A model generated the notes under the pieces. That model was not told the origin of the DNA, made no database searches, and saw only the letters and a program-made list of their open reading frames with translations. Below, in pieces: positions 41,903-64,000 of a stretch of 64,000 nucleotides of DNA (within the stretch, counting starts at the first letter, position 1; each line of letters opens with the position of its first letter). A program made the translations under genes and the position numbers. The stretch is from Actinomycetes bacterium (GTDB lineage Bacteria; Actinomycetota; Acidimicrobiia; IMCC26256), in contig JBJTWK010000081.1 of the NCBI GenBank assembly GCA_046081705.1, positions 26,680-90,679 of the forward strand, read 5' to 3'.

Positions 41903-41905
41903 CGC

Positions 41906-45578: not shown

Positions 45579-45615
45579 GGGCCCTCCCCCGCCGGTGCGG
45601 GCGAGCCTAGAGGGG

Positions 45616-47240: not shown

Positions 47241-48452
47241 ATGGTGTTCCGCATCAACCGATCGTTCAGGATCGCGCCCGGGGTGCGGTTCCGGCTCAAC
47301 AAGGGCTCGGTCGGGCTCACCGTCGGGAAGGGCCCGCTCAACTACACCGTGAACTCGCGCGGTCGCCGCACGTCGAGTCTCGGCATCCCGGGGACGGGCA
47401 TGTACTTCCAGGACGTCCGGGGCGGCTCGTCGTCGCGCTCGTCCCGGTCGCGGACCCGCCCCGCACCCGAGCGGGCCGACGCGCCGGCACCGGTCGAGCC
47501 GGAGTACATCCGGGGCACCGCGGCCGAGGCGATCGCGACCTCACTGGCCACCCGGAAGCCGGGCTGGCTCGCGCCCAAGGGCGAGAAGGCGCTCCACCGA
47601 GCCCTGGCCACGCAGGACGCCGCGGCACTGGCGGAGATCGCAGCCGCCGCCGGTCCCTACACGGTGGCGGCGAACGCGCTCCTCGCGATCGTGGCGCCGT
47701 GCGAGGACGACGCCGGGCTCGAGGTGCGGGCGCGCGCCATCTACGCCGCGCTCGCCGCCGGTGATCCCGGGGAGGACGCCTTCATCGCCAAGTACGCGCC
47801 GGGCCTGCGGACCCATGTGCCGATCACCGAGCAGGTCGGCGCGGAACTCCCGATGAGTCGGGTCGGCCTCGCGCTCCTCCACGTCGAGACGCTCCAGGCG
47901 CTCGGGAGGATCGAGGAGGCCGCCGACTACGTGGCGAGCATCGAGCGCGACGAGGTGAGCGCACTCTCGCTCGCCGAACTCTGGATCGCGCTCGAGCGCT
48001 GGAGTGACGTCATCGATCTCACCACGGGGATCGAGAACGCCGACGACCTCTCGGCGCTCATGCTCGTGTACCGCGGGATCGCGTTCCGGGAGCAGGGGTA
48101 CTTCGACGCGGCCCGTGAGGCGTTCCGCGCCGCGCTGCGGTCCAAGAAGCGCAGTCCGCTCGTCCGCCACCTCGCGCTGTTCGCCCGCGCGCAGTGCTCG
48201 GTCGAGCAGCGCCGGTTCGCCGCGGCCCGCAAGGACCTCGAGACGATCCTCAACGAGGACCCCGCCTACGACGGCCTGCGCGAGGCGCTCGACGCGCTCG
48301 GACCGGCGAAGGCCCGCGGGCGCGGTGGCGCCGAGGCCGGATCCGCGGCGCCGGACGAGGACGGCACGGACGACGACGCCACGGACGACGACGGCACGGA
48401 CGACGACGAACCGGCGACCGGCCCGGCCGGGCCGCCCACGATGCTCACGTGA
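47241..48452 (+). CDS. DUF4236 domain + TPR protein
   Basis: FRINRSFRIAPGVRFRLNKGSVGLTVG...SLGIPGTGMYF; TPR-like YRGIAFREQGYFDAAREAF. Confidence 0.8.
   Translation: MVFRINRSFRIAPGVRFRLNKGSVGLTVGKGPLNYTVNSRGRRTSSLGIPGTGMYFQDVRGGSSSRSSRSRTRPAPERADAPAPVEPEYIRGTAAEAIATSLATRKPGWLAPKGEKALHRALATQDAAALAEIAAAAGPYTVAANALLAIVAPCEDDAGLEVRARAIYAALAAGDPGEDAFIAKYAPGLRTHVPITEQVGAELPMSRVGLALLHVETLQALGRIEEAADYVASIERDEVSALSLAELWIALERWSDVIDLTTGIENADDLSALMLVYRGIAFREQGYFDAAREAFRAALRSKKRSPLVRHLALFARAQCSVEQRRFAAARKDLETILNEDPAYDGLREALDALGPAKARGRGGAEAGSAAPDEDGTDDDATDDDGTDDDEPATGPAGPPTMLT
48360..48404 (+). repeat. 3 x 15-nt tandem repeat encoding an acidic tail (DGTDD/DATDD)
   Basis: GACGGCACGGACGAC / GACGCCACGGACGAC / GACGGCACGGACGAC. 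Confidence 0.85.
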
Positions 48453-48458
48453 AGCGGG

Positions 48459-50333
48459 TCAGGCGCCGGGTGTCGTGAGGATCTCAGCGAGGCGATCGGC
48501 GGGCATCGGGCGGTGCAAGCCGTACCCCTGACCGAGTCCGATCTCGAGGGCGACGAGGGTCTCGCGCTCGGCGTCGGTCTCGATCCCCTCGGCGAGCACG
48601 CTCAGCCCGAGACTCGCAGCCACGTCGGCCTGCGCGGCGACGAGCGCCTGCGCCGCCGGATCGCCCTCGATCCCCGCCACGAAGGAACGGTCGACCTTGA
48701 TGCCGGTGAACGGCAGGTCGCGCAGGCGCGCGAACGACGAGTAGCCGGTGCCGAAGTCGTCGATCTCGAGGGCGAACCCCGCCGCCCGCAGGGTGCGCAG
48801 ACCCTCGATGACGGTTGCGTTCTGCACCACGGCACTCTCGGTCATCTCGAAGCAGACGTGCCGGGGCTCGACCCCGGACCGCTCCGCGATCGCGAGGACG
48901 CGCGCGGCCGCGTCGGGTTTGCCGAGGTACGCACCGGACAGGTTGATGGCGATGCGGAACTCACGATCCGCCGGGGCGAACCGCTCGACGGTGTCCCGCA
49001 ACGCAGTCGCGATGATGTGCTCGGTCACCGCGTCGATCACGCCGATCCGCTCGGCGATCCGGATGAGGCGCTCGGGCGGGACCGTCCCGGTCATCGGTGC
49101 GTCCCAGCGGGCCAGGGCCTCGGCGCCGACCACCCGGTCGGTCGTGAGGTCCACGACCGGCTGGTAGGCGAGGTGGAGGAACTCGAACGCCTCGGCGACG
49201 TTGAGCACCTCGGTGAGTTGGAGGCGTTGGGCCACCCGGGCGCCGACCTCCGCGTCGAAGACCACCGTCCGGGCTCCGCCGTACCGCCACGCCTCGCGTT
49301 CCGCCGCCTCGGCCTCGGCGAGCAGCTCCGCCGCTCGACGGACCGCCCCCCGATCGACGGCGGCGCCGATGCTCGCGGTGATGCGCACCGACCGGCCGGC
49401 CATGACGAAGGGTTCCGCGAACGCCTGCTCGAGACCGGCGGTGAACTCCGCGAGCGCGAACTCGGTGGCCTCGGGCACGACGAGCACGGAGAACGCGTCG
49501 CTGCCGAACCGTCCGAGGATCGCCGCGTCGGGGGTGGCGGCCCGGAGGCGGGCCGTCACCTCGATGAGCACCTCGTCACCGAGCGCGAACCCGAACGCGT
49601 TGTTGATCTCGGTGAAGCCGTCGAGGTCCACGATCACCGCGACGATCGGCACCGGCCGGCGGGCCTCCCGGACCTCGGCGATCACCGACTCGACGTCGGC
49701 GGCGAAGGCCGCCCGGTTCAGGAGCCCGGTCAGGCGGTCCGTGCACTCGGCGTGGGCCACCCGCCCCTCGTCGTGTCGCCGTCCGACCGCGGCGGCGATC
49801 GTCTCGCCGATCGTGACGAGCACGTCGACGTCGACCCAGGAGAGCTGACTCCGGTGCGTGACGTAGTCGAACCCCATGAACCCGAGGAGTTCGCCGCCCG
49901 AGCGCAGCGGCGTGACGATCAACGAGCGGATGCTCTGCGCCGCCAACACCTCGCGGAGTTCCGCATCCTCGTCCGGGATCGCGTCGACGTCCTCGATGAA
50001 GACGTGCTCGGACTCCTCGAAGGCGTCGAGCCAGCCCTGTGCGAGATCCCGCGGCATGTTCTGGAGATTGTCGATCTCCGGCGAGATCCCGTCGGCGCAC
50101 CACTCGTGGGTGTTGTCGACGAACGCGCCCCCGGGTTGGAACTGGAACACGTAGGCGCGGTCGACCCCACAGAACTTCCCGACCTCGGCGAGCGTCTGGT
50201 CGATCGCCTCGTCGAGCCCGGCCACGGTCCGACCGGCGAGGGCCTGCATCACCGAGCGCGAGATGTTGTGCAGCCCGACGGCGCGGTCGACCTCAGAGCT
50301 CGACAGCGATCGCCGTTCGGGGATGCCGCTCAT
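48459..50333 (-). CDS. GAF-GGDEF(degenerate)-EAL protein, probable c-di-GMP phosphodiesterase
   Basis: GAF DRAYVF...THEWCA; DRLTGLLNR; GGDEF replaced by GSDAF; intact EAL, EMTE, DDFGTG, KVDRSF, AEGIE, QGY. Confidence 0.93.
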   Translation of the reverse strand: MSGIPERRSLSSSEVDRAVGLHNISRSVMQALAGRTVAGLDEAIDQTLAEVGKFCGVDRAYVFQFQPGGAFVDNTHEWCADGISPEIDNLQNMPRDLAQGWLDAFEESEHVFIEDVDAIPDEDAELREVLAAQSIRSLIVTPLRSGGELLGFMGFDYVTHRSQLSWVDVDVLVTIGETIAAAVGRRHDEGRVAHAECTDRLTGLLNRAAFAADVESVIAEVREARRPVPIVAVIVDLDGFTEINNAFGFALGDEVLIEVTARLRAATPDAAILGRFGSDAFSVLVVPEATEFALAEFTAGLEQAFAEPFVMAGRSVRITASIGAAVDRGAVRRAAELLAEAEAAEREAWRYGGARTVVFDAEVGARVAQRLQLTEVLNVAEAFEFLHLAYQPVVDLTTDRVVGAEALARWDAPMTGTVPPERLIRIAERIGVIDAVTEHIIATALRDTVERFAPADREFRIAINLSGAYLGKPDAAARVLAIAERSGVEPRHVCFEMTESAVVQNATVIEGLRTLRAAGFALEIDDFGTGYSSFARLRDLPFTGIKVDRSFVAGIEGDPAAQALVAAQADVAASLGLSVLAEGIETDAERETLVALEIGLGQGYGLHRPMPADRLAEILTTPGA

Positions 50334-50346
50334 GCCCGGAACGATA

Positions 50347-50361
50347 GTGACGTTCCGTCAC
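50347..50361. promoter_or_regulatory. Inverted repeat abutting the -10 (TATCGT) of the EAL gene
   Basis: GTGACG-TTC-CGTCAC directly upstream of the -10 at 50341-50346. Confidence 0.35.
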
Positions 50362-50422
50362 GGACCCGACCGGCGCCGGCCCAGCCCGACGCGCGGCTGA
50401 ACTCCCTGCAGGCGCGCGGTCC

Positions 50423-53400
50423 TCAGACCACGGCCAGACTGCGCACGATCCCGACCGACTCGGCCAGCACGGCTCGCCGGGCCCGAAGCGCCTGCGTCTC
50501 CTCGTCGTCGGTCCCGAGGAGCGCGAGGAGCGTGTCGATCGCCGCCACCTCCTCGACCGGGAGTCCCTGGGCCGCAGCCGCCGACAGTGTTCCCCGCACC
50601 GCCGCCGCGGCACGGAGCACATCGCCGGCGCGTGCGAGGAGCGCGGCATCGAGGCGCGCGAACCAGATCGGGAGCATGCCGGTGCGCTCGAGCTGGTCGA
50701 CCCGAGGGCGCGCCGAATCCAACGCGACCCGTGCGGCCGCATCGTCACCGGCGAGGAGGTGTGCCTCGGCGATCCGCAACTCGGTGTCGACGGCCCACGA
50801 CGCGTGGCCCAGGGCCCGGAAGCCTTCGAGCACATCCTCGAGGAGCTCGAGCGCCCGGGCGGAGTCCCGGCGCCACGCGGCGGCACGACCGAGCCCACTC
50901 CGCGCGAGCAGGAGACCGTCCCGGCTCCCGATCGCCCGGAACCTGCGCTGCGCGTCCGAGAAGTCGGCGACCGCCTCGTCGTACCGGCCGAGCCCGGCGA
51001 GGCACTCACCGCGGTTGTGGATCGAGAGTGCGGCGCCATCGGCGTCACCACACCGGCCGAAGGCCTCCGCCGCGGACCGGAACAGGTCGAGCGCCGGAGC
51101 CGGTCGATCGGCATCCATGTTCGCGACACCGAGATTGAGGTCGAGGCAGGCACGCCGGAAGTCGTCGCCGGAGCGTGCCATCGCCGTGCGGGCACGCGTC
51201 GCGTAGGGCTCGCCGTCCGGATGCCCGAGGAAGGCGGTCATCGTCGCCGCTTGGAGGAGCGCCTGGGCCGCGCGCTCCCCGCCGATCACCTCTGCGCGTT
51301 CCAGCACCCGCAACGAGACGCCGAGCGCGGCGCGATTGCGGTCCTGATGGTGCAGCGTGGATGCGTAGGCGAGGTGGGCCTCGATCTCCTCCGACTCCTT
51401 CGCCGGCGAATCCGCGCACCGTGCACAGGTCGAGATCGCCCGCCGGTACCAGCGCAGCGACTGCGGGAGGGCACCCCCACGCGCCGTGACCTCTCCCCGC
51501 TTGCGCAGGACGCGGGCCCGCTCGACGCTCGGATCCTCGGTCAGGCGCTGGGCCCGGGCGAACCACCGCTGCGCTGCGTCGCGCTCCCCGATCCGGTACG
51601 CGAGGTCGCCCGCCTCCTCGCAGAGGGCCACGACCTCGGACCGGTCGACCCGATCGATGCGATCGGCCACCCCGATCGCATCGACGGCGAGGGCGTACCC
51701 GTCGACCGGTGCGGACCGGTCGACCGCATCGCGCAGGGCCCGACGGGTCCACTCCCATGCCAGATCGAGCGCGCGGCCGGTGACAGCGTGGAACGCGAGC
51801 AGGGCCGCGTCCGGGGTCGCCCCGCCGGCGAGTCGATGCGCGACCGCGGCATGCAACGCGCGACGGCGGGTGAGCGACAACCCCTCGTAGGCGATCTCCC
51901 GGAAGGCCGGCTCACGGAACTCGGCCACGCCGTCGGCGACGACGACGAACTCCTCGGTGCCGACCCAGGCGTCCTCCTGCGCGGCACCGGGATCGCCGAT
52001 CACGTCGGCGAGCAGTCCGAGATCCACCCGGCGCCCGAGCACCGCCGCCTCCCGGAGCAGGAGACGCGGCCGGGTCGGCACCGCATCGATCCCGGCGGCC
52101 ACGACCCGCTCGACGGTCTCCGGCAGCGCGCCACCGCTCTGCGCCGCCCCGGCGAGACCCCGGAGGAAGAACGGATTGCCCGCGCCGAGCACGAGCACAC
52201 GCTCGAGCACGTGCTCACCGATCGGCGCGTCATCGGTGAGATCGATCACGAGATCCCGCGCCGCCGCCGCGCCGAGCGCAGCCAGTTCGAGCCGTCGCCG
52301 GTCCAGGTCGTCGAGGTCGCACTCGTCCCGGTGCGCGATCACGACACCGAACGGAGCGCCGAGCCCGACCTGCCGTGCGAGCCGACGCGCGAGGGACTGC
52401 GACGCGTCGTCGAAACCCCCGAAGGAGTCGAGCACGAGGGTCGTTCCGGGATCCAGCGATGCCGCGAGCAGTTCGGCGACGACCTCGTCACGCCGGTCCG
52501 CCACGAAGTCCGGGCCGAGCGCATCGACCTCGGCCGTCCGACCCGCAGTGGCCCCGATGGCCTCGGCGAGCAGCGGGAGCCACGGTCCGAGCCGAGCGGC
52601 GTGGGCAGCGACCCGCGCCGCGAGGGCGGCCCCGGCCGCCCCGGGGGATGCGTCGTCGTCGATCATCAGCGCACGCCGCACCAGCTTGCGGGCCGCAGCG
52701 AGTGGTCGGTGCTTGGCGTAGGGCTCGCCCGTGACCCGGACCACCCGGCCGCCCCGGGCCGCCACGACCTCGTCGACCAGGCGGGTCTTGCCGATGCCGG
52801 CCGGGCCCGTCACCTCGATGACCTCGCCGGCCTCGAGCGCCGCGAGGAGCGCGGCGGCCTCCGCGTCGCGACCCACCATCGGCGTGGCGCGTGCGTCAGC
52901 GACGTCGGCGGCCGACCGGATCTCGATCAGATCCACCGTCTCGACCGGCGCCGCCTTGCCCTTCGCGCGGAACGGCGCACACGGCTCGGTGCGCACCCGG
53001 CCGCGCACCCGCTGGAGCAGGGGCGCGTGGACGAGCAACTGCCCCGGGGCGGCGTGGGCCATGATGCGCGCCGCGAGGTTCGTCGCGTCGCCGCTGATGC
53101 TGTACGTGCGTCGCTGCGGATGCCCGACGTCGCCCGTGAAGTTCCGGCCCCGGTTCACCCCGATCGCGAGATCGAGGCCGAGATCGGCATCGAGGATCTC
53201 CCGGGCCGCCACGAGGAGGCGGTCCTCGTCGTCCTCGTGGGCGACGGGCGACCCGGCCACGAGGACGAAGTCGGCCGCGCCGGGGAGAGCATCCGCACCC
53301 ACCCAGAGCAGTCCGTACTCGTCCTGCACCCGCTCGATCTCGACCGCGAGCGCCTGCAGACGCTCGACCGTCGCCACAGCGCCATCGTTCGCCAACCGCC

Positions 53401-54172
53401 CGTCGAGGTCGCGCACCCCGACGAACGCGAGGCTCAGCTGACGGTGCTCACCCGGGATCGCCCCGGCCGCGAGCAGGTCACGCACCGGCTCCGGCACGCA
53501 CGCGCGCGCGATCTGCGGGTCCACCTCCCCGTCGAAGTCACCGTCGTCGGTCCCCGGGTCGAGCGGCACCCGGAGGAGACGCGCCATGCCCGTACCGGTC
53601 GGCCTCGACCACGCGGCCGGGAGGAGCGCTGCGGTCTCGGGTGTCACGAGGACCTGGGTGGCCTCGGCCTCCTTCTCGGCCGCGAGCGCGCGACTGATGT
53701 GCTCGCCGAGCGCGAGGACGACGCACTGACGCGACCCGAGGCGGGCGAAGGTCGCCGGCCCCGCGTGCATGCCGACCGACATCCGGAGGCGGACCCGGCC
53801 GATCTCCGATGTGATCGATCCGTGGTCCCGGATGAACCGCTGCATCGCCACCGCGGCGTGGGCGGCTCGGACCGGGTGCCCGTCACCGGTGAAGTGCACG
53901 AGGATCGCGTCGCCGCTGAACTGCAGGACGTCCCCGCCCTGCGCTCGTGCGGCGGTGATGAGCCCGACGAAGAGCATGTCGGCGATCTCCGTGATCGCTT
54001 CGGCTCCCTCGGGCCCGAGGCGGGCGAGGCGCTCGGTCAGGCGGGTGTACCCCGAGACGTCGAAGAACCCCAGCGTCCCGTCGACGACCTGGAAGGGCAC
54101 GCCGTCGGGCCACCGGTGTGCGAGCCGCGACCCGAAGACCGCGAGCCGCCCGTCTCCCCCCGCGCCGACCAC
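50423..54172 (-). CDS. Soluble-adenylyl-cyclase-like protein: two class III cyclase domains + STAND/AAA ATPase + TPR
   Basis: Domain 1 FFDVSGYT...QFSGDA (metal Asp pair); domain 2 TYSISGDATNLAARI; Walker A GPAGIGKT; EFREPAFREIAY; TPR-like C-terminus. Start chosen at the GTG after GGAGG (ORF open from 54289). Confidence 0.88.
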   Translation of the reverse strand: MVGAGGDGRLAVFGSRLAHRWPDGVPFQVVDGTLGFFDVSGYTRLTERLARLGPEGAEAITEIADMLFVGLITAARAQGGDVLQFSGDAILVHFTGDGHPVRAAHAAVAMQRFIRDHGSITSEIGRVRLRMSVGMHAGPATFARLGSRQCVVLALGEHISRALAAEKEAEATQVLVTPETAALLPAAWSRPTGTGMARLLRVPLDPGTDDGDFDGEVDPQIARACVPEPVRDLLAAGAIPGEHRQLSLAFVGVRDLDGRLANDGAVATVERLQALAVEIERVQDEYGLLWVGADALPGAADFVLVAGSPVAHEDDEDRLLVAAREILDADLGLDLAIGVNRGRNFTGDVGHPQRRTYSISGDATNLAARIMAHAAPGQLLVHAPLLQRVRGRVRTEPCAPFRAKGKAAPVETVDLIEIRSAADVADARATPMVGRDAEAAALLAALEAGEVIEVTGPAGIGKTRLVDEVVAARGGRVVRVTGEPYAKHRPLAAARKLVRRALMIDDDASPGAAGAALAARVAAHAARLGPWLPLLAEAIGATAGRTAEVDALGPDFVADRRDEVVAELLAASLDPGTTLVLDSFGGFDDASQSLARRLARQVGLGAPFGVVIAHRDECDLDDLDRRRLELAALGAAAARDLVIDLTDDAPIGEHVLERVLVLGAGNPFFLRGLAGAAQSGGALPETVERVVAAGIDAVPTRPRLLLREAAVLGRRVDLGLLADVIGDPGAAQEDAWVGTEEFVVVADGVAEFREPAFREIAYEGLSLTRRRALHAAVAHRLAGGATPDAALLAFHAVTGRALDLAWEWTRRALRDAVDRSAPVDGYALAVDAIGVADRIDRVDRSEVVALCEEAGDLAYRIGERDAAQRWFARAQRLTEDPSVERARVLRKRGEVTARGGALPQSLRWYRRAISTCARCADSPAKESEEIEAHLAYASTLHHQDRNRAALGVSLRVLERAEVIGGERAAQALLQAATMTAFLGHPDGEPYATRARTAMARSGDDFRRACLDLNLGVANMDADRPAPALDLFRSAAEAFGRCGDADGAALSIHNRGECLAGLGRYDEAVADFSDAQRRFRAIGSRDGLLLARSGLGRAAAWRRDSARALELLEDVLEGFRALGHASWAVDTELRIAEAHLLAGDDAAARVALDSARPRVDQLERTGMLPIWFARLDAALLARAGDVLRAAAAVRGTLSAAAAQGLPVEEVAAIDTLLALLGTDDEETQALRARRAVLAESVGIVRSLAVV

Positions 54173-54242
54173 CGTGGAGCCGTCCTCCGTCGAACCGGCG
54201 AGCCACCGCCCGCGCCGTGACGCGGACGGTAGCGCGCGGAAC

Positions 54243-57200
54243 TCAGTCGTCGTTGAGGATGGTGACGGTACCGACGGAGCGCAGGACACCGGTTCCGGTG
54301 AGCACGACCTGGAACGTCTCGTCGGCCTCGTTCGCCGTGTCGGGCTGGATCGGGATGCTGAGGACCTTCCAGTACGAGGCCGCTTCGAACTTCAGCGTGC
54401 CGGAGGTCTTCACGTAGTCGCCCGTCGCACCGGCCCGGGCCGCTTCGGTCGCGCCTCCCGCCACCGTGCGCGTCGTGTAGTTCACCGACACCGCCTTGGA
54501 CTGCGGACCCGAGAGCCGTACGAGCAGTTCCACGTTGCGGGTCCCGGTGTTGCCCTCGACGATCTTCGCGTCGCCGATGGTGATGCGCGGCTGCACCATC
54601 GTGATGCCGTCGTCGTTGAGGATCACGCCGGTACCGACCGAACGACCGAGGGGCACGACCGTGGCCTTCGTGAGCACGAGTTCCATGCGCTCGTCCGACT
54701 CAGCCGTGAGATCCGGCGTCACGTTCACCTCCACCGTCGCGGCGAGCGATCCGGCCGGGATCGTCACCGAGGCGTTCGTGGCGGCCTTGAAGTCCGAGCC
54801 CGGGCTGGCCGGGACCACCCCGGTCGAGGCCGTGACCGTCCGGGTCGAGTAGGTGACCACCACGTTCGAGGTCTGTGCGGCGGTCAGGGTGACCCGGAAG
54901 CGCAGCGACCCGTTCTTCGAGTCACCCTCCCCGACGCTGCTGTCCCCCACGTTGACGCTCACCCGCGCCAGACCCGGGATGGTCGCGGTGCCGAGGGGCT
55001 TGGCGAGGTCGGCGTTCGTCGCCGAGTCGACCACGAGTCCGAAGGACTCCGTGAACTCGCGTTCGGTGTCCGCGAGCACCGGCACCTCGACCACCTTGGT
55101 GGTCTCGCCGGGTGCGAACGTCAATCGCCCGGCGACCGGCAGGAAGTCCGAGAGCGCCGTCGCCGAGGCGTCCGCCGTCCGGTACGCGACCGTGACCGGT
55201 ACGGAGGTCGCGGCGCTCAGCGTGACCGGGAACGACGCGTTCGCCGTCCCGGTCGCGGGCTCGGCGATCGTGATGTCGCCCACGGTCACCGTCGGTCGCA
55301 CGACGGCCGGGAAGAGCGAGCCCTTGTTCGAGGCCACGCCCACGTTCCCGTTCACGTCGACCACCTGCACGTAGTAGGGGGTCGTCGTGGCCGACGACGC
55401 GACCGTCGCGGTCCCGGTCCACCGGGTCCCCGCCCCTGCGGTGAGGTCGACCCGACGCCAACCCGTCGAGTCCCGGAAGAGGACGACGACGCGCCCGATG
55501 CCGGCGCCGTCGGCGGCGTCGACGTCGAACGTCGCGACGCGGGTCGTGCCGTTCACCCGGGCGTCGACTCCGAGGATCGTCGGCTCGGTGAAGTCACCAC
55601 TCGCCGAGTAGAGGACGCTGCCCTCGACCCGGGAGAAGAGTTCCTGCGTGCCGGTGCCCGCGGTGTCGCGCGAGCCGTTCGACTCGAACCGGCCGGGGGT
55701 GAGCACGATGCGCTGCCGCTGCTTCGGTCCGTTCGTGGCGAACGGAGCCCCCGACGGATCGGAGTAGGTGCTGATCGTTGCGAAGCGGGCCGGGAACGCC
55801 ACATCACCGGCCACGATCTCGGGCGCGGTGGCCGCGTCGTCGACCGTCGCGCGAGCCCACGCGGCGTCGAACCCGGTCAGCGGATTGCCCGCATCGGTGA
55901 GCGCCGTGATGAGCGCACCGTGGGCCGGGAGCAACTGCCCGTTCGTCCGCGCCGTGACGTCGCGGTCGACGCGGGGCTGCGTGGGCCGGCCGGGGAGCGT
56001 GAGCGGCAATTGGCCGGCGACCTCGTACCACGCACCGTCCGGACCGGTGCGCTGGGTCAGCGCGCCCGACATCGGGATGGCGGCGGCTCCCGGGTTCGCC
56101 TGGTCGTAGACGAACGACGCCGACGACACCCCACCGGTACCGGCGGTCGGCGTCACGTCGGTGGGCGCCGGACGCGTGACCGCCGCCCCACCCACCCTGA
56201 AGAACGGGAGGCCGTACAGGTTCATGCTCTCGAGCACCTTGTCGTCGTAGGTGCCGTAGAGACCCTGGGTCGAGAAGTACGTCTGCTTCGCCCGGACGAG
56301 GGCATCACCGATGGTCACTGCGCCGTCGAGCTCGCCCGCGAAGAACCCGATGAGACGGTCGTGGAGCTGCACGCCCGAGTCGTCGCCGTACCCGAACCCG
56401 GTCGCTGCGAGGTACACAGCACCTCGGGCGAGCAACTGCTCCGGGAAGTCGGCGCCCCCGCGGGCATCGCTGAGTCCGGCGTGGCACCCCATCGAGAACA
56501 CGAGGTTGGTACCGGCCGGGAGCGCGGCCGCGAGTTCGGCCGGGGTGAAGAGATCCGCCCCGTCGGCGGAGCCCTGGGCCGAGACGCCCGACAGGTGGTC
56601 GGCGTGCATGAACAGGTTGGTCACCCTCGCCTGGGTGGCCGCGATGCTGCCGGCACCCGTGAGGAGGTTCGCGCTCGTCCACGTGTCGTTGATGAGTTCG
56701 ACCGGCGTCACGGGGTCGTCCCCGTTCGCCGTCGTGAGCTTCGTCGCCAACGTCGACTTCACCGCGGTCGCCCCGGGCTTCATCCAGTCGTAGCCCGTCA
56801 CGAGGGCCTTCGACGGGTCGAGCACACCACCACTGGTGAGGTAGGTGTCGATCACCTCGGTCATCTGCGCCGGGGTCTCGACGAGACGTCCGACGGCGAG
56901 ATCTTCGACGTACAGGCGCCGGTTGAGCCACGGGATCGGGTCGAGGTCGCCGTACGCCGCGTCCGTGAGGAAGTGGCTCGTGGCGAACGCCGCGCCGATC
57001 GGCGAGCCGGGATCGAACGCGTCGGCGTACTGCGACTCGTTCCCCGAGCGCGTCGTGTCGACCGCACGGGCCATCGGGACCACGTCGTCGGAGCCGACGA
57101 CGACCACGTTCGCGATCTGCGGGTGCGCCGCCACCCCGGGCAGGGAACCGTTGCGCAGCCCCTGCACGAGTTCGGAGATGCGTCGCACCACCGTGTTCGT

Positions 57201-60200
57201 GAGGGTCGGGTCGCACGGCTTCGCCGCGAGCGCCGCGTACGCACCGGCCACATCCGGGTACCCGGCGTTGCGGGCGGGGCTCGAGCCCTCAACCGGGAGC
57301 ACGACGCCCCGTACGGAGGGATCGGCGGCGAGCGTCGCCACCTTCGCGAGCAGCGCGCTCACATCGGCCCCTGGGAACTGGTCCCCGAGGCGCTGGAGGT
57401 TGACGAGGAACACCGTCCGGACGTCGGCCGGGACCGTCGTGAGGTCCGGCAACGTGCCCGGCGCCCCCGAGAACGGGTGGTCGTACGGCAGGCACTGCGG
57501 CACGGCCGTGGCCGCGACCTCACGGACCCGGAGCACGTACGGCAGGTTCGAGACCGCCCCGCGGTAGGCGCTCACCTGCACGAAGTTCGCGCCACGACCG
57601 ATCGCGTTCTCCTCATCCACCACGCTCGACGTCGCCGAACGCGCCACGACCGTGGTGCCGGCCGGTGCCCCGACCGGTACATCGGCGGAGAGTTCAGGTC
57701 GAGGCGCGACCTGATTGCTGGTCGGATCGATGCCCTCATCGTCGATCGGCGCCACCTGCGGCGCGATCGCGCGCGAGGCCACCGGGCTGATCCCACTCGT
57801 CGGGGTGTCCTGCGGCGGACCGAACAGCACGAGGTCGCCGTCCCCGGCGAGATGGCTGAGACGGACACCCACCTGGGTGTCGACCGATCGGGGCGAGAAC
57901 GAGTAGAGGTCGACGTCGCCGCCGTCGGCGAGGTAGCCGAACTGCAGGCGGTCGGACGCGATGGACGCCGCAGTCCCCGCGTTCGATCCGGGGTCGGTGC
58001 CCTCCACCACCCGGACCTCGAGCGGGGTCGCGTCCGTTCCGACGGTCTCGACCTCGACGCGGGCCGAGACCTGACCGGCCCCGAGCCCGAGGCTCGGGAT
58101 CACCCGAGCGACGACCGAGTAGTTCGTGTTCGAGGTCACTCCGGACACGCCGACGATGAGCAGCGTCGCGTCCTCGCTCACCTGCTCGTCGAGGACGCGG
58201 ACCGTCGGGGTGCCCGTCCCGGTCACCCGCAACGGCGCGAGCCCCGACCGGACCGTCGGGTCGAGGCGGAACCCGGCCGGCATCCGCACCAGCACGCGGG
58301 CGTCGAGGCCGGCGATGGTCCCCGTGGCCTGCGCCTGGAAGGTGGTGGTGTAGTCGACCGTCGTCACCGGGTCGGCGAAGCGCGCGAGCCCCGCGGCCTC
58401 GAGGTCGAGTTCCTCCCACGGGAAGTCGATCGCATCGAGGTAGCCGGTGACGACGTCGTTGACGGTGATCCCGTACAGCACGATCGAGCCGAGATCGGAG
58501 AGCGCCAGCGGTCCCAGCGCCGGGTCCTTGAAGTGCTTGCCGAGATCGGCGAGGGTCGCCGTCGGCCGGATCGCCCCGGCGTCGACCGCCGCACCGAGGT
58601 CCGCACCCGGGCAGGTGAACGACGCGGAACAGACCGCGAACACGGCGAGTTCCGCATCCGTGAAGTCGTCGAGCGGCACCGCACGGAGCGCCGATGCGGT
58701 ACGGACCGCACCGTCGAGCGCCGAGGCGCCGAGCCGGGTCACGTAGAGGTTCAGGTCGTCGAGCAGGGTGTCGAGGACGGGTGCGCTCTGCAGCTGGAGG
58801 GTGAAGAAGTTCCGTCCGACATCGATCTGACGGAGCTCCGGGTGCTCGGCGAGCAGCAGCGCCGCATCCGGGATCATGTCGAGTTCCATGAGCGTGCGGC
58901 CCGTGCCGTCCGCACCGAACTCGGCGCAGGTCCGGCCGGTGACCGACGCGAACTGCGTGCACCACGGCACGAACGGCGCGGCGGTGAGGTCGCTCACCGG
59001 CGTGTTGCCGAGTTCGAAACCGACGGGCGTGATCGCGATGAGCGGCGAGTCGTCGAGCACGAGGTCGCCGACCGTCAGATCGGCGAGCGCCGGCGAAGCG
59101 GCCTGCGCGGTGTAGAGGTCGAGCAGTGCCCCGACGCTCACCGACTGGATCGGGATGCCGTCCAACGGCGTGCCCGCAAGCAGGGCCGGCCAACCCCCAT
59201 CCGTCGTCACGCCGATCTGGGACAGCGGCGCGTCGCGGACCGCATCGACGGTCCCGAGCCGGGTGGCGAGCGACGACACGAGCGTGCTGGCGACGTCCCG
59301 GAGCCTGGTCCCGCCGGGCCGCAACCTCGTGCCCCCCGGCCGCAGCTTCGTCCCGCCGGGTCGCAACTTGGTGCCCCCCGGCCGCAACTTGGTGCCCCCC
59401 GGAGCGGTCGACACGTCGAGTCCGAACCCGCGCAGGGCATCCGTGGGGATCGCGTTGATCGCCACGCTCGTCGCTCCCGGCGGCGTGTTCAGGGTGCTCG
59501 CCGCCAGGCTGACGGTCACGCCCGTGAGCGCGTTCCCGAAGCGCGTCACGTAGACGTCCTCGGCGCCCGCGAACGTGTTCGTGTCCGCCGCGATGAGCGG
59601 ATCGGGCGAGGTGAACACGACGGTCGGGCGCGCCTGCGCGATCATCACCGTGCGCACGCGCGCGTCGGTCCCGCCGGAGTCCTTCACGGTCAACGAGGTC
59701 CCGTCCGTGAACCGCACGTACCCCGTCATGAGCGGGAAGTCGATGTCGTTGATGTAGGAGACCGTCCCGTCGTTCGCCACGTCCGGCGCGCCGGCCCAGC
59801 TCGTCGGGACGGCGTTCGACATGAGGGTGAAGCCGCCGTCGGCCGCCTCGTCGTACACACCGTTGTTGTTGCCGTCACGATCACGGCGGTAGACCCGGCT
59901 CGTGCCGGTCGCCGACGGGAGGGACGCATCGTCGCTGGCGATGGTGACGAATCGCCCGTTCGCGCTCATCGCACCGAACGATCCGCCGGCGAACGTGGCG
60001 AGCCCGGCGTTGCGGGCCGCCGCCGTCGAGGTACCGGTGTTCCGGTCCCAGATCGCGACGTCGGGCCGTGCGTTCGTGTCGGCCGCGTTGATGCCGGACA
60101 CGGTCGAGAACGCCACGAAGCGACCGTCGTCACTCACCCGCGGTCCGCAGGCCCGCACCGCGCTGCCGTAGGCGAGGTACCCGCACGACGTCGTGGAGGT

Positions 60201-61040
60201 GAGCACCGAGCCGCCGCCCCCCCGACTCACCCAGGTCGTGGACACGCCGCCGGGCTCATCGAACACGCCGTTCGCGTCGGCATCGCGGTCACGCAACCAC
60301 ACGACGTTGAAGTAGCTGCCCTCGATCTGCGGGCCGCCGAACGACGGTGCATCGGATTCGAACGCCACGAACCGACCCGTCGAGGAGATCGACGAGCGAC
60401 CGGTGGTGCAGCCGTCGGCCGGGACGCTCTCGGTCGATCCGAGCGTGCCCGTCGCACTCACGAGTCGCGTGGCCGTCGCACCCGGTTCGTCGAGGATGCC
60501 ATCGCCGTCGGTGTCACGGTCGCGGACGTAGACCTCGACCCCGTCGCAGCCGTCACTCCCGGCGATGCCCGGGAGGATGCTCCCGAGCGCGGTGAAGGTG
60601 ACGTACCGACCCGTCGCGCTGATCGAGGGATCCGCGGCGCTGTAGGGCTGGAGACCGGTCTCGCCCCGACTGACGAGGTGCGTCTCCCCCGAGACGAGGT
60701 CGCGGACGTACACGTCCTCCTGACCGAAGTTCGAGTCCTCGGGAACGAGGGACCCGCGCGTGACGAACGCCACGTGCTGTCCGTCGGCCGAGATCGCCGG
60801 TGCGCAGTCCTTGGCCGACCACAGACCGTCGTAGTTGCTGCACGAGCCGTTCGTGATCTGCTCGCCGTCGGGCCCGACGCTCGCACGCTCGAGACTCAGC
60901 GCGATGGGCGCGGCGCCGGCGCCCGGCGCCGTCGCGAGTTCGATGCCCACCATGCCGCTGACCCCGATGACGGCGGCGAGCAGCGCCGAGCCGATACGAC
61001 GGATCGGCCCGCCGCGCGAGATGTCCTGCCGTGCCTGCAC
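54243..61040 (-). CDS. Giant secreted protein (~2265 aa): TolB-like beta-propeller, heptad repeat, C25/caspase-like peptidase, Ig-like and Calx-beta domains
   Basis: Signal peptide; PAISADGQHVAF/DVYVRD repeats; PGGTKLR x5; VVVVGSDDVVP, DLAVGRL, FMHADH, SMGCHAG; three Calx-beta units ending TILNDD. Confidence 0.85.
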   Translation of the reverse strand: MQARQDISRGGPIRRIGSALLAAVIGVSGMVGIELATAPGAGAAPIALSLERASVGPDGEQITNGSCSNYDGLWSAKDCAPAISADGQHVAFVTRGSLVPEDSNFGQEDVYVRDLVSGETHLVSRGETGLQPYSAADPSISATGRYVTFTALGSILPGIAGSDGCDGVEVYVRDRDTDGDGILDEPGATATRLVSATGTLGSTESVPADGCTTGRSSISSTGRFVAFESDAPSFGGPQIEGSYFNVVWLRDRDADANGVFDEPGGVSTTWVSRGGGGSVLTSTTSCGYLAYGSAVRACGPRVSDDGRFVAFSTVSGINAADTNARPDVAIWDRNTGTSTAAARNAGLATFAGGSFGAMSANGRFVTIASDDASLPSATGTSRVYRRDRDGNNNGVYDEAADGGFTLMSNAVPTSWAGAPDVANDGTVSYINDIDFPLMTGYVRFTDGTSLTVKDSGGTDARVRTVMIAQARPTVVFTSPDPLIAADTNTFAGAEDVYVTRFGNALTGVTVSLAASTLNTPPGATSVAINAIPTDALRGFGLDVSTAPGGTKLRPGGTKLRPGGTKLRPGGTRLRPGGTRLRDVASTLVSSLATRLGTVDAVRDAPLSQIGVTTDGGWPALLAGTPLDGIPIQSVSVGALLDLYTAQAASPALADLTVGDLVLDDSPLIAITPVGFELGNTPVSDLTAAPFVPWCTQFASVTGRTCAEFGADGTGRTLMELDMIPDAALLLAEHPELRQIDVGRNFFTLQLQSAPVLDTLLDDLNLYVTRLGASALDGAVRTASALRAVPLDDFTDAELAVFAVCSASFTCPGADLGAAVDAGAIRPTATLADLGKHFKDPALGPLALSDLGSIVLYGITVNDVVTGYLDAIDFPWEELDLEAAGLARFADPVTTVDYTTTFQAQATGTIAGLDARVLVRMPAGFRLDPTVRSGLAPLRVTGTGTPTVRVLDEQVSEDATLLIVGVSGVTSNTNYSVVARVIPSLGLGAGQVSARVEVETVGTDATPLEVRVVEGTDPGSNAGTAASIASDRLQFGYLADGGDVDLYSFSPRSVDTQVGVRLSHLAGDGDLVLFGPPQDTPTSGISPVASRAIAPQVAPIDDEGIDPTSNQVAPRPELSADVPVGAPAGTTVVARSATSSVVDEENAIGRGANFVQVSAYRGAVSNLPYVLRVREVAATAVPQCLPYDHPFSGAPGTLPDLTTVPADVRTVFLVNLQRLGDQFPGADVSALLAKVATLAADPSVRGVVLPVEGSSPARNAGYPDVAGAYAALAAKPCDPTLTNTVVRRISELVQGLRNGSLPGVAAHPQIANVVVVGSDDVVPMARAVDTTRSGNESQYADAFDPGSPIGAAFATSHFLTDAAYGDLDPIPWLNRRLYVEDLAVGRLVETPAQMTEVIDTYLTSGGVLDPSKALVTGYDWMKPGATAVKSTLATKLTTANGDDPVTPVELINDTWTSANLLTGAGSIAATQARVTNLFMHADHLSGVSAQGSADGADLFTPAELAAALPAGTNLVFSMGCHAGLSDARGGADFPEQLLARGAVYLAATGFGYGDDSGVQLHDRLIGFFAGELDGAVTIGDALVRAKQTYFSTQGLYGTYDDKVLESMNLYGLPFFRVGGAAVTRPAPTDVTPTAGTGGVSSASFVYDQANPGAAAIPMSGALTQRTGPDGAWYEVAGQLPLTLPGRPTQPRVDRDVTARTNGQLLPAHGALITALTDAGNPLTGFDAAWARATVDDAATAPEIVAGDVAFPARFATISTYSDPSGAPFATNGPKQRQRIVLTPGRFESNGSRDTAGTGTQELFSRVEGSVLYSASGDFTEPTILGVDARVNGTTRVATFDVDAADGAGIGRVVVLFRDSTGWRRVDLTAGAGTRWTGTATVASSATTTPYYVQVVDVNGNVGVASNKGSLFPAVVRPTVTVGDITIAEPATGTANASFPVTLSAATSVPVTVAYRTADASATALSDFLPVAGRLTFAPGETTKVVEVPVLADTEREFTESFGLVVDSATNADLAKPLGTATIPGLARVSVNVGDSSVGEGDSKNGSLRFRVTLTAAQTSNVVVTYSTRTVTASTGVVPASPGSDFKAATNASVTIPAGSLAATVEVNVTPDLTAESDERMELVLTKATVVPLGRSVGTGVILNDDGITMVQPRITIGDAKIVEGNTGTRNVELLVRLSGPQSKAVSVNYTTRTVAGGATEAARAGATGDYVKTSGTLKFEAASYWKVLSIPIQPDTANEADETFQVVLTGTGVLRSVGTVTILNDD
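59298..59402 (-). repeat. 5 x 21-nt in-frame tandem repeat encoding PGGT(K/R)LR
   Basis: CCGGGGGGCACCAAGTTGCGG / CCGGGGGGCACCAAGTTGCGA / CCCGGCGGGACGAAGCTGCGG / CCGGGGGGCACGAGGTTGCGG / CCCGGCGGGACCAGGCTCCGG. Confidence 0.95.
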
Positions 61041-61162
61041 CGTGCGCCCCCCGCCCACGGCCGGATGCCGCGATCCGGCCGAAATTACCCACGGAGGGTG
61101 GTACCCGGCAAGACCCAGCACTGCGGAGCGTGGCGGGACTCTGACGGCGTGGCCCGCCCGGA

Positions 61163-62986
61163 TCAGGCCCAGTGCCGCGCACCCCCGCTTGCGATCCAGG
61201 CGTCGAGGATCGGGCCGGCATCCCGCTCCCCGCCGACGACGAGATCCTCGAACCGGTCGAAGTCGAGGAGGCTCACCCCCTCGAGACCGGGGCGCACGTA
61301 GCAGTCGCCGCGATCACCCGGGTCGCCGGCGCCGAGTTCGGTGAGGCGCATCAGGAGTTTCGGCAGCCCGAACGCGCTCCCGAGCGCCCGGCGCCGAGCA
61401 CCCTGGGTGAGGGCGCGCCATCCGGAGACCGCACCCTCGGCCGAGCCGCCCGCCCCGGTGAACTCCTTGTTCGCACCGACGTCGATGGCGATCACGGTGA
61501 TGCCCTCGTGGAGCGAGCGCATCGTGCTCACCGGCATGTTGTCGAGGACCCCACCATCGACGAGTGTCTCCCCCGCATCGTTGTGCATCGGCGGGAAGAT
61601 CCCGGGCACCGAGAAGCTCGAACGGATCGCAACCCAGGCCGGCCCCGTCGTGTGCACGTCGAGCGCTCGGGTCGACAGGTTCGTCGACACGCAGAAGAAG
61701 TTGAGCCAGCCGTCCTCGAGGTCGAGGCCGCCTGCGCCGTCCTTGATCCGTTCGGTCACCCGACCACCTGCCGCCACCGACACGGTCGGGAGCGTGATGT
61801 CGACCGGGGAACGGTCGAGCACCGCCGCCCGGATCTGGGTCGCGATCGCGTCCGGCGAGTCGCCGCGCGCCACCGCGCCACCGACGATCGATCCGATGCT
61901 CGCTCCGCCGACCGCGTCGATCGGGATGCCGCGGGCCTGCAGCGCTCGGAGGACACCGATGTGCGCGATGCCCCGAGCGCCCCCGCCGGAGAACACGACA
62001 CCGACTGCACGACCAGTGACCAGTCGCGCCACGCGCTCGAGGTCGGTCGCGGACCCCGAACGCACGTTGTGGTGACGATCGACCGGGCGTGGCGCGAGCC
62101 ACCACCGGGTGTTCCGGGGCGTGGCTGCCGCGGCCGGGTGCACCAGCACCAGCTCCGTCCGGGGCCGCGTGGCTCCGGTGCCCTCAGCGATCGCCGTCTC
62201 GATCGGACGAACGCTCGGGGCATGGGAAGCATCCGCCACCAGCACGATCCGGTCGGCCTGCTGCGCGCACGCGTCGGTCCAGGCCGACGCCACGGCATCA
62301 GCGAGGAACACCGCGCCGCCCGACCGGGTCGCGAGACCCTCGCACCACTCCTGCAGCGCACCGGGGGGCGCGTCGGCACCGACCTCGGCGCGCGCCTCGT
62401 CGCCGTTTCCGGGGCGTGCGCCGGCCACCGTTCGCGCCAGGGTTGCGGCGAGATCGGCCGCCGCCGTGAGCGTCGTCGGGGTGTCGGTCACCGGCACCAC
62501 GACCACGGTGGCGCCCGCGTCGGTCGGCCCGCGACCATGCGCGGTCGCCACCAACTTGCGGATGAGCACGGTCGACACCGCCCGCATCGCGCCGGCATGC
62601 TCCGCCACCAGGGCGTCGAACGCCGCCAGCGGGAGGATCGCCAACCTCGAGTCGCGGATCGCGACCACATCCGCGGAGCGCGGGCCGTCCGTGATGAGGG
62701 CCATCTCCCCTGCGACCTCACCCCGGCCGACCTCACCGAGCACGGTTCGTCCGCCGTCGTCCCCGACGAGCTCGACGCGGAGCCGACCGCGGACGACCAT
62801 GAGCAGTCCGTCTGCCCGGGCGCCTTGGTGGATCACCGTGGTGCCGCGCCGCACTTCGCGGATCTCCATCGCCGCGACGACGGCGGCGCGTGCGTCGGCC
62901 GAGAGCGGCCCGAACACCGCGCTCGCTTCGACGAGTTCCGCGAGGCGGTCCGGCGTCGGACTCACGCGAGGATCAGGATCCGTCAC
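61163..62986 (-). CDS. cNMP-binding domain + patatin-like phospholipase (NTE/RssA-like)
   Basis: Phosphate-binding cassette GEMALITDGPRSADV; patatin motifs SGGGARG, GASIG and VDGG. Confidence 0.93.
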   Translation of the reverse strand: MTDPDPRVSPTPDRLAELVEASAVFGPLSADARAAVVAAMEIREVRRGTTVIHQGARADGLLMVVRGRLRVELVGDDGGRTVLGEVGRGEVAGEMALITDGPRSADVVAIRDSRLAILPLAAFDALVAEHAGAMRAVSTVLIRKLVATAHGRGPTDAGATVVVVPVTDTPTTLTAAADLAATLARTVAGARPGNGDEARAEVGADAPPGALQEWCEGLATRSGGAVFLADAVASAWTDACAQQADRIVLVADASHAPSVRPIETAIAEGTGATRPRTELVLVHPAAAATPRNTRWWLAPRPVDRHHNVRSGSATDLERVARLVTGRAVGVVFSGGGARGIAHIGVLRALQARGIPIDAVGGASIGSIVGGAVARGDSPDAIATQIRAAVLDRSPVDITLPTVSVAAGGRVTERIKDGAGGLDLEDGWLNFFCVSTNLSTRALDVHTTGPAWVAIRSSFSVPGIFPPMHNDAGETLVDGGVLDNMPVSTMRSLHEGITVIAIDVGANKEFTGAGGSAEGAVSGWRALTQGARRRALGSAFGLPKLLMRLTELGAGDPGDRGDCYVRPGLEGVSLLDFDRFEDLVVGGERDAGPILDAWIASGGARHWA

Positions 62987-63407
62987 GGACGAGACGCGCC
63001 TCGCGCAGCTCGCCTGCCATCGCGATGAGCATCTGCTCGGCGAGATCCGGGAACTCTCGCAGCATCGTGCGGAACATCCGGATACCGATGACCGCGACCT
63101 TCACGTCGGTGAGGGCGGTCACCGTGGCGCTCCGCGGCTGGCCATCGAGGACCGCGAGCTCCCCGAAGTAGGAGCCCGGACCACTCCGATCGATCTCCAC
63201 GCCGCCGCGCTGCACGGCCACGTCGCCCTCGAGGACGACGAAGAGCGCGTCCCCGGCCTCCCCCTCAATGACGAGATCGATACCCGCAGCGGCGTCGACC
63301 ACCTGCGCGTGCCGCGCCACGGCACGACGTTCCGCTGCGGTGCAGTGCGAGAACAGCCGTACGCCGTCGAGCGCTTCGGCGAGTTGCTTCTTGACGCCCA
63401 CGTACAT
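62973..63407 (-). CDS. Stand-alone cyclic-nucleotide-binding domain protein (no HTH)
   Basis: LFSHC, EGEAGDALFVVLEGDV, FGELAVLDGQPRSATV; ends after the C-helix. Confidence 0.9.
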   Translation of the reverse strand: MYVGVKKQLAEALDGVRLFSHCTAAERRAVARHAQVVDAAAGIDLVIEGEAGDALFVVLEGDVAVQRGGVEIDRSGPGSYFGELAVLDGQPRSATVTALTDVKVAVIGIRMFRTMLREFPDLAEQMLIAMAGELREARLVRDGS

Positions 63408-63489: not shown

Positions 63490-63518
63490 CGATAAACGCG
63501 CGATAAATGGGGGGCAAC

Positions 63519-64000
63519 ATGCGTCGACTCGCCATCTTGGTGGTGCGCCGACGGTGGTGGGTGATCGTCGCCGCAGCGATCCTCCTGCCGCTCGCGGCGT
63601 TCGTCGCCAAGGACACTGCGCACCACCTCTCACCGACGGGGTATCAGGACCCCGGCGCGGAGTCGTCGCGGGCGACGCGCTCCATCACCGCGGAGTTCCC
63701 CGACGCCGCCCAGTCCGACTTCGTCGTCATCGTGACCGCGCGTGATCCGGGCAAGGTGGACGCTCCCGAGGTCGCCACCGCCGCGGCCGCGCTCGCCGAA
63801 CGCCTCGGGCGCGCTGAGGGCGTCGCCTCGGTCAACTCGTACTGGTCGCTCGGCAATGCACCGCCGCTGCGCAGCCGTGACGGCTCCAAGGCACTCATCG
63901 TGTCCGCACTCCGCGGGGACGAGGGCGAGAAGACGGAACGCGCACTCGAACTCCTCAAGGAGTTCACGGTTCGCAACGACCGAATCTCGACCGCCATCTC
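63519..64000 (+). CDS. MMPL family transporter (5' part; runs off the window)
   Basis: My translation: MRRLAILVVRRRWWVIVAAAILL...GYQDPGAESSRA...SYWSLGNAPPLRSRDGSKALI. Confidence 0.88.
   Translation, partial: MRRLAILVVRRRWWVIVAAAILLPLAAFVAKDTAHHLSPTGYQDPGAESSRATRSITAEFPDAAQSDFVVIVTARDPGKVDAPEVATAAAALAERLGRAEGVASVNSYWSLGNAPPLRSRDGSKALIVSALRGDEGEKTERALELLKEFTVRNDRISTAI

Follow-up and report, generated by a model that had tools for sequence, protein, structure and literature searches.

Several described systems share parts with the locus reported here. Class III cyclases linked to signal transduction ATPases with numerous domains (STAND) are represented in bacteria by the Rv0386 type of Mycobacterium tuberculosis, and the Lap system places a giant Calx-beta-containing adhesin under cyclic di-GMP (c-di-GMP) control through LapD and LapG. 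Pycsar combines a stand-alone, compact class III cyclase (PycC) with effectors that join a cyclic nucleotide-binding (CNB) domain to TIR or are of the PycTM type, CBASS includes the patatin phospholipase CapV, and the PNPLA6/7 or neuropathy target esterase (NTE) family carries CNB, NTE_Ploop and patatin domains in that order. Full-length mammalian soluble adenylyl cyclase (sAC; ADCY10) consists of a C1–C2 catalytic unit and a STAND P-loop half that has no known regulator (PMC12802110). Here we analyze a run of five genes, named E, D, C, B and A in order of transcription, in a 64,000-nucleotide stretch of Acidimicrobiia contig JBJTWK010000081.1 (the window). The run encodes a bare CNB protein, a predicted NTE-type CNB-patatin esterase, a giant secreted C25-like protein, an sAC-like cyclase with STAND and tetratricopeptide repeat (TPR) regions, and a likely c-di-GMP phosphodiesterase. 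The explanation we favor, to which we give about an even chance, is that the run is a composite cyclic nucleotide monophosphate (cNMP) neighborhood of three units (MMPL–E–D, C–B and A) that serves envelope and exoprotein signaling rather than abortive infection. Both the components and the principle of placing a cyclase beside CNB proteins are known, and this local variant of cNMP signaling is undescribed. An earlier note on this DNA knew of no described system with this exact set, and our literature search likewise found no direct description of the gene set or of a link between C25-like proteins and STAND cyclases.

The genes of the run and the neighbor that bounds it upstream are as follows, in window coordinates.

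62973–63407, minus strand: gene E, 144 aa, bare CNB protein
61163–62986, minus strand: gene D, 607 aa (600 aa in relatives), predicted CNB-NTE_Ploop-patatin esterase
54243–61040, minus strand: gene C, 2265 aa, giant secreted C25-like protein
50423–54172, minus strand: gene B, 1249 aa, tandem cyclase with STAND and TPR regions
48459–50333, minus strand: gene A, 624 aa, GAF-GGDEF-EAL protein
63507–64000, plus strand: 5′ part of an MMPL lipid-transporter gene (Pfam MMPL), divergent from E, bounding the run and cut by the window end

The open reading frame (ORF) listing and translations bear out the co-oriented minus-strand arrangement proposed in the earlier note, with successive gaps E/D, D/C, C/B and B/A of −14, 122, 70 and 89 nt; the first value is the 14-nt overlap between the E stop and the longest D start. 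Framing by GC content at third codon positions (GC3) backs the reading frames of all five genes. For C and B the chosen starts agree with gene calls in relatives at 80–86% identity, where C has 2246 or 2265 aa and B has 1248 aa. By itself, a run of five co-oriented genes is unremarkable, and its significance here rests on comparative data.

The strongest comparative signal is the pairing of C with B. Each of the six looked-up homologs of the C central region (32–50% identity, four distinct lineages) has a gene of Guanylate_cyc-AAA_16-TPR architecture within 10 kb (6/6), in convergent or divergent orientation, and tblastn detects full-length B similarity of 31–37% in C-homolog loci. B-like and C-like genes also lie near one another in locus L053 (compared loci are given by L numbers) and in the genus of the window. 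For B we sampled 80 metagenome loci centered on B-like genes and found a C25-like gene in 8 of the 80, either co-directional, with C followed by B as in the window, or divergent. Several of the contigs used in this study are short or frameshifted. In a rough neighbor-joining tree, the B of the window groups with C25-linked B-like proteins, and D-linked cyclases fall elsewhere. The dependence of C on B is asymmetric, with C-types nearly always accompanied by B and B-types accompanied by varied partners. By analogy, this asymmetry resembles a dedicated MalT/LAL-type regulator encoded beside its target, with cyclase output in place of a helix-turn-helix (HTH). The conserved pairing of C with B also suits the alternative role that the earlier note had entertained for the run, control of a surface protein.

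Large secreted cadherin/Big_9 or beta-helix proteins are often encoded near C homologs. In L086–L091, which come from long-read assemblies, frameshifts break the C25-like genes into several gene calls. These genes stand among others for large secreted proteins of cadherin/Big_9 and NosD-type beta-helix kinds, which suggests loci devoted to exoproteins. Two ORFs without a Pfam match beside B-like genes, of 272 aa in L087 and 247 aa in L086, were considered as conserved small partners and rejected, since each overlaps the frameshifted N-terminal portion of a B-like gene.

The domain content of B is that of an sAC-like enzyme. Pfam identifies two Guanylate_cyc stretches, AAA_16 (E 7.1e-14) and TPR_12 (E 5.3e-13) and no HTH domain, and the Walker A motif reads GPAGIGKT. 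The best PDB match is human ADCY10, at E 2.3e-15 with the single sequence and E 9.4e-45 with a five-member profile whose match spans both C1 and C2. Together, the Pfam and ADCY10 matches uphold the earlier assignment of B as a double class III cyclase with STAND and TPR regions. The catalytic unit was placed by alignments to sAC and by a family alignment.

52913–54100, minus strand: C1–C2 catalytic unit of B, about residues 25–420

Within this unit, C1 retains both metal-binding Asp residues (in FFDVSGYT and FSGDA, equivalent to sAC D47 and D99), whereas C2 has no metal-binding Asp and keeps the transition-state Asn and Arg (in GDATNLAARIM, equivalent to sAC N412 and R416). Because the metal-binding residues are held by C1 and the Asn and Arg by C2, B is predicted to form, as sAC does, a pseudo-heterodimer with a single active site; it also shares with sAC the STAND P-loop and the helical repeats. 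The residue at the sAC T405 position is Ser in B. B differs from sAC in carrying Gln at the bicarbonate-site Lys95 and Gly at Lys334, a position considered further below, and its N-terminal region is only about 25% identical to that of sAC. Compared with the Rv0386-type STAND cyclases, B lacks their LuxR HTH.

C begins with a signal-peptide-like N-terminus followed by PD40-like repeats, five copies of a GGT[KR]LRP heptad, a conserved middle region, the C25-like unit, beta-sandwich domains and Calx-beta repeats. The N-terminus is positively charged and then hydrophobic, consistent with a signal peptide, and C has no other membrane segment. L002 and L173 each have an ortholog equal in length to C. 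Three regions of C can be delimited.

59295–59399, minus strand: five tandem GGT[KR]LRP heptads, residues 548–582 of C, between the PD40-like region and the conserved middle region
56181–57443, minus strand: C25/clan-CD peptidase unit of C, about residues 1200–1620, placed by AlphaFold2, Foldseek and conservation
54246–55283, minus strand: Calx-beta repeat region of C, about residues 1920–2265 (Pfam Calx-beta 1.1e-26, two stretches)

Sequence searches with C itself do not name the peptidase. Pfam gave only Calx-beta and weak PD40 matches, with no match to PF01364 at E ≤ 0.01, and C25 was assigned neither by NCBIfam nor by a PDB sequence search, which returned Calx-beta matches only (the Calx-beta domains of NCX1 and integrin beta-4). 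Among homologs of the C central region, some have a PF01364 assignment or are named "C25 family cysteine peptidase" by NCBI, and the PF01364 match is faint in P0126, the homolog re-examined at its locus. An AlphaFold2 model of residues 1180–1920, built from 31 sequences, reached a predicted local distance difference test score (pLDDT) of 88.7 and a predicted template modeling score (pTM) of 0.91. Foldseek comparison of this model with the PDB placed the RgpB gingipain first (4ief; E 9.5e-11, probability 1.0, TM (target) 0.57) and PorU (6za2) next, with separase at rank 25. Because the homolog annotations, the AlphaFold2 model and the Foldseek matches agree, the C25 call is confirmed indirectly, and the catalytic unit is modeled as a C25/gingipain caspase-hemoglobinase fold. 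Candidate catalytic residue Cys1519 (56484–56486) is kept in 30 of 30 homologs and candidate His1479 (56604–56606) in 27 of 30. The modeled fold and the signal-peptide-like N-terminus sustain the earlier description of C as a 2265-aa secreted, caspase-fold, C25-like protease.

C shares with gingipains and PorU the fold, a His...Cys dyad about 40 residues apart and the Ig-like beta domains that follow it. It differs in sequence, at about 12% identity, and in the setting of its peptidase unit, which forms one part of a 2265-aa protein that also has PD40-like and Calx-beta regions. The type IX secretion C-terminal domain of gingipains is not expected in C given its actinobacterial host, and no search was aimed at it. 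C also recalls the Lap system, since a giant Calx-beta exoprotein and a cysteine protease are tied genomically to second-messenger enzymes, and in L173 the C ortholog is flanked by a homolog of A, here termed A′, and by a CRP-family gene. In contrast to Lap, protease and giant protein are one polypeptide here, the linked messenger enzyme makes a cNMP by its cyclase prediction and the host is monoderm; genes for type I secretion, a LapD-like receptor or a LapG-type (BTLCP) protease were not seen.

E and D both carry the elements expected of cNMP receptors. E is a bare CNB domain (Pfam cNMP_binding, E 5.6e-17) with an intact phosphate-binding cassette (GELA...RSAT), and its best PDB matches are the CNB domains of PKA-R and PKG. 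D combines cNMP_binding (2e-21), NTE_Ploop (PF24179; 2.4e-15, 57.3 bits vs a cut-off of 27) and Patatin (1.4e-29), with an intact CNB cassette (GEMA...RSAD) and the patatin motifs GGGARG at 334, GASIG at 361 with the nucleophile Ser, and DGG at 477 with the Asp. Pfam and a motif scan therefore agree with the earlier report of two intact GE...RSA cassettes and a patatin with all its catalytic motifs. The CNB, NTE_Ploop and patatin architecture is common to 608 homologs of D, NTE_Ploop occurs in all listed homologs, and the catalytic motifs are invariant in the homolog alignment. An exact-sequence look-up of D gave no match, and the homolog search recovered an identical protein. Judged by its architecture, D is an NTE-type CNB-patatin with predicted esterase activity, and it shares domain order and all catalytic motifs with the PNPLA6/7 family. 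It differs from that family in having one CNB domain and no membrane anchor, and in its neighbors: a gene for a small CNB protein comes before it and C–B comes after it, the latter in this genus alone. To our knowledge, cNMP regulation of a bacterial NTE-type member has not been shown to date.

The genomic context of D was sampled in 80 genome loci around D homologs, each searched with all five proteins. In about 20 Acidimicrobiia species-level loci, an E ortholog (49–70% identity, mostly 60–70%) lies directly upstream of a D ortholog (41–54%), and an MMPL gene (59–70% identity) is divergent from E–D in at least 20 of these. An hspR(MerR)-dnaJ-grpE-dnaK operon lies downstream of D in at least 13 E–D loci, followed by a gene for a CCG/Fe-S protein. 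No B-like or C-like match was found in the roughly 20 E–D loci, which total about 400 kb and have no cyclase within 10 kb, and the background frequency of B-like genes is thus low. Because about 20 species carry the pair, usually beside the dnaK operon and without B or C, MMPL–E–D is a core, vertically inherited Acidimicrobiia module that would operate without a neighboring cyclase. The loci with dnaK beside the module are L010–L012, L014, L015, L018, L022, L025, L026, L029, L030, L044 and L070 (for example L012, 7612–19465), and the lineage of the window has lost this dnaK-adjacent chromosomal context at the present position.

B-like cyclases recur beside cNMP-binding proteins in other lineages. 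In a second subclade, represented by L042 (7739–15425) and L045 (388–8346), one operon encodes an ATP-binding cassette (ABC) exporter that ends in a CNB domain, a CNB-NTE-patatin that is 36–38% identical to D, and a tandem-cyclase-AAA_16-TPR protein; the same three gene types lie near one another in L036 (1251–6275 and 14287–16242). The paired ABC-CNB and CNB-patatin genes of these three loci recall M. tuberculosis Rv2564 and Rv2565, the latter a CNB-patatin homolog of the NTE family, which are adjacent CNB-domain proteins (PMC4886424). L053, from an Acidimicrobiaceae metagenome-assembled genome (MAG) of 62% GC, encodes on one strand a B-like protein, a C-like protein (1775 aa), a D-like protein, a MacB-type permease and an ABC ATPase-CNB fusion, in a gene order that differs from the window. 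Overall, B-like genes adjoin CNB-NTE-patatins in L042, L045, L036, L047, L053, L136 and L138, with the CNB-patatin divergent from the B-like gene in L136. Other neighbors of B-like genes include an MFS-CNB fusion, CRP, a CNB-histidine kinase, a PIG-L deacetylase-CNB fusion and small CNB genes; neighbors of the CNB-fusion class lie at L093 4547–6691, L116 1361–2971, L146 7408–9132, L113 4673–5392, L144 20936–22462 and L120 14726–15928.

Of the 23 loci whose flanks are long enough, roughly 9 have a CNB gene next to the B-like gene. This distribution suggests that B-like proteins act as hubs with interchangeable local cNMP receptors. Given the range of cNMP-binding proteins encoded next to B-like genes, it is plausible that in this genus B signals to D and E by way of a cyclic nucleotide. 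Small CNB proteins beside other B-like genes were considered as E orthologs and rejected, their 32–38% identity being domain-level similarity only. In one clade of C25-linked loci, a small PF18967 (PycTM, a Pycsar effector domain) gene lies directly beside the B-like gene, namely in L086 (13100–13387, minus strand), L088 (20668–21186, plus strand) and L089 (about 19391–19853, plus strand); the window has no PycTM homolog.

At the downstream end of the run, A has a GAF + GGDEF + EAL architecture by Pfam and NCBIfam. Its GGDEF site is degenerate, reading GSDAF at position 277 in place of an intact GG[DE]EF, and its EAL domain (Pfam E 2.4e-61) has the complete catalytic set (EAL, N, E.TE, DDFG, K.D, EG.E and GQG). 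A is thus likely, on its motifs, to be a c-di-GMP phosphodiesterase, as the earlier note had proposed, with the amendment that EAL does not stand alone. A second gene bounds the run on this side.

47181–48452, plus strand: DUF4236 and TPR/EccA1_N-like protein gene, convergent with A

Comparison of related genomes reveals that the run occupies one plastic locus with three gene contents. L172 has an A ortholog (80% identical), still beside the DUF4236 gene, and 84% nucleotide synteny with window 39152–50309 that ends at the start of A; upstream of A, Hexapep and MDMPI_N genes replace B, C, D and E. In L173, A′ (a 48% homolog of A) is followed directly by a C ortholog (2265 aa, 66–82% identical across regions) and then by the CRP-family gene. 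Neither D nor E occurs in the L173 DNA available, and B is unseen there, the contig ending about 50 nt past the CRP gene. The MDMPI_N anchors of L002, L172 and L173 are orthologous at 70–79% identity, and the DNA between MDMPI_N/DinB_2 and the A/DUF4236 backbone holds Hexapep–A in L172 (8235–11908), A′–C–CRP in L173 (5773–16898) and MMPL–E–D–C–B in L002 (11–16029). Because the close relative L172 keeps A without E–D–C–B, we assign A to the flanking backbone and not to the variable E–D–C–B block, an assignment based on gene content. Because the same locus holds three different contents, the five genes do not form one inseparable unit.

Relatives at 80–86% identity keep MMPL divergent from E–D–C–B, on contigs that end inside B, and synteny at this level of identity says little. 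The neighborhood comparison did not find all five genes together in another genome; only E–D–C–B recurs, in these close relatives, and the co-occurrence anticipated in the earlier note is not borne out. That note had also read the run as a self-contained circuit of sensor, second messenger and membrane lipase. The link from cyclase through cNMP to receptor is backed by recurrent adjacency elsewhere, while the idea of a self-contained five-gene system falls to L172, L173 and the core status of E–D.

From the catalytic and nucleotide-binding residues and the conserved pairwise linkages observed here, we infer a path of ligand sensing, product formation, receptor activation and coupling to C. C would be a giant secreted C25-like cysteine peptidase or a protein of adhesin type, and B its dedicated partner, in which a STAND NTPase of the MalT/LAL type and its TPR sensor control a C1–C2 cyclase. 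A ligand would bind the TPR/NOD part of B, and nucleotide-dependent activation of the STAND region would turn on the single C1–C2 site, for which the C1 Asp and C2 Asn and Arg residues are present. B would then produce a 3′,5′-cNMP, most likely cAMP. The intact cassettes of E and D would sense it locally, and the patatin esterase activity of D, and in turn the envelope lipids, would change. The most probable role of MMPL–E–D is cAMP-responsive turnover of membrane (lyso)phospholipids. Production or deployment of C would be coupled to the same cNMP signal, a coupling that fits the CRP-type gene adjoining C in L173.

Several observations weigh against this explanation. No receptor linking cNMP to C was identified in the window, and no CRP ortholog occurs in its 64 kb. 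Of the 23 B-like loci whose flanking DNA reaches 10 kb or more, only about 4 include a C25-like gene, and the neighbor-joining tree that groups the B of the window with C25-linked proteins is crude. The C25-like family is large, with 2786 clusters at 50% identity (E ≤ 1e-30), mostly of 1000–4000-aa proteins, and the context sampling covered the members closest to C. Most genomes encode no cyclase close to E–D, so D and E may respond to the global cAMP pool and not to the product of B. The adenine-contact Lys334 of sAC corresponds to Gly331 in C2 of B (53180–53182, minus strand), and the four relatives compared have N, N, K and D there; because this adenine-selecting position is Gly and varies among relatives, the nucleotide product of B is not assignable and neither substrate nor product is predictable from its sequence, so that cAMP is a default guess. 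A search for RNA-seq runs containing this organism found DNA runs only, from freshwater metagenomes, which bears on co-transcription and co-regulation.

The same comparative data bear on two readings that we consider unlikely to different degrees. One holds that E–D with MMPL, C–B and A are independent, were placed side by side by rearrangement and share only the cellular cAMP pool; we judge this neutral juxtaposition unlikely while granting it real weight. It accounts well for the three gene contents between the MDMPI_N anchor and the A/DUF4236 backbone, for the roughly 20 species whose E–D pair has no cyclase within 10 kb, and for the C ortholog of L173 between A′ and CRP, with no D or E in the available DNA. 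It does not predict the adjacency of B-like and D-like genes, in varying gene order, across several other lineages, the independent combination of B-like, C-like and D-like genes in L053, or the enrichment of CNB genes beside B-like genes (about 9 of 23 loci). The other reading reverses the direction of signaling, such that peptide products of C, or C itself, would be sensed by the TPR region of B and lead to cNMP production in an RRNPP-like manner. The tight, orientation-independent linkage of C to B, the large TPR sensor of B without a DNA-binding output and the intact His/Cys dyad of C are all compatible with such sensing, which we nevertheless hold to be improbable: genes for a peptide importer or precursor do not occur consistently, and a dedicated LAL/MalT-type regulator beside its target explains the linkage more simply.

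A defensive role, the first option of the earlier note, fares worse and in our estimate is very improbable. In a Pycsar/CBASS-type scheme, B would sense infection and raise a cNMP alarm, D would act as a membrane-degrading effector and E as a buffer or co-receptor. The placement of a class III cyclase gene against CNB-protein genes does resemble Pycsar, PycTM genes adjoin B-like genes in a sister clade (L086, L088 and L089), and the E–D–C–B block is present or absent at one locus between close relatives. cNMP cyclase and caspase themes occur in conflict systems (Kaur et al. 2020, PMC7159879), and a 2026 preprint predicts an uncharacterized immune clade of STAND-fused cyclases (bioRxiv 10.64898/2026.08.12.744502). 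PADLOC nevertheless returned weak, domain-level matches only and no system-level model: its PycC models match part of the first cyclase domain of B (best E 1.6e-10, about 90 residues, 96–188 of the 1288-aa ORF), and its PycTIR and effector matches to D and E are confined to the CNB domain. Unlike PycC, B is a 1249-aa tandem-cyclase-STAND-TPR protein, and in place of CNB-TIR or PycTM effectors the run encodes an NTE-type patatin and a bare CNB protein, in a pair that is core across Acidimicrobiia beside MMPL and the dnaK operon. D and CapV have in common a patatin phospholipase potentially under cyclic nucleotide control, but D uses a classical CNB domain and belongs with NTE proteins through NTE_Ploop, NCBIfam CBASS_lipase scores it at E 0.0049 (16.2 bits vs a cut-off of 200), and neither PADLOC nor Pfam found a CD-NTase among the five proteins. 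C is secreted and not an intracellular effector, the partners of B-like proteins (transporters, CRP, histidine kinase) are not killing effectors, and the window gene and domain survey found no phage, integrase or other defense genes near the cluster, in DNA of uniform composition. A related proposal, that B is the sensor of a new STAND-gated, Pycsar-like immune or conflict system that would activate D here and PycTM in the sister clade, with C in the module, seems to us a similarly long shot; if true, it would give the first functional assignment for the predicted 2026 clade of cyclases fused to a STAND NTPase.

If the envelope and exoprotein signaling explanation holds, the locus gives genomic access to the signal that sAC-type enzymes sense through their STAND/TPR half, with the giant C25-like peptidase neighbor as a concrete candidate pathway. 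It would also be a case of compartmentalized cAMP signaling encoded in gene order, and the module of MMPL, CNB and CNB-NTE-patatin genes would suggest cNMP control of lipid turnover in an abundant, little-studied freshwater lineage. The locus further cautions that neighborhoods combining a cyclase with a patatin are not always phage defense.

The closest relatives of the window are Acidimicrobiia MAGs and the host is an uncultured freshwater actinobacterium; about 96% of sampled words are present in four freshwater metagenome runs. GC content is uniformly high across the window, at 0.68–0.75. A consensus scan for promoters and terminators, uninformative in DNA of 72% GC, gave no promoter and no informative terminator and did not confirm the separate promoter that the earlier note had assigned to A. 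Far from the cluster lie three tRNA genes, the sole Rfam matches in the window.

19533–19605, minus strand: tRNA gene
22736–22825, minus strand: tRNA gene
27928–28010, minus strand: tRNA gene

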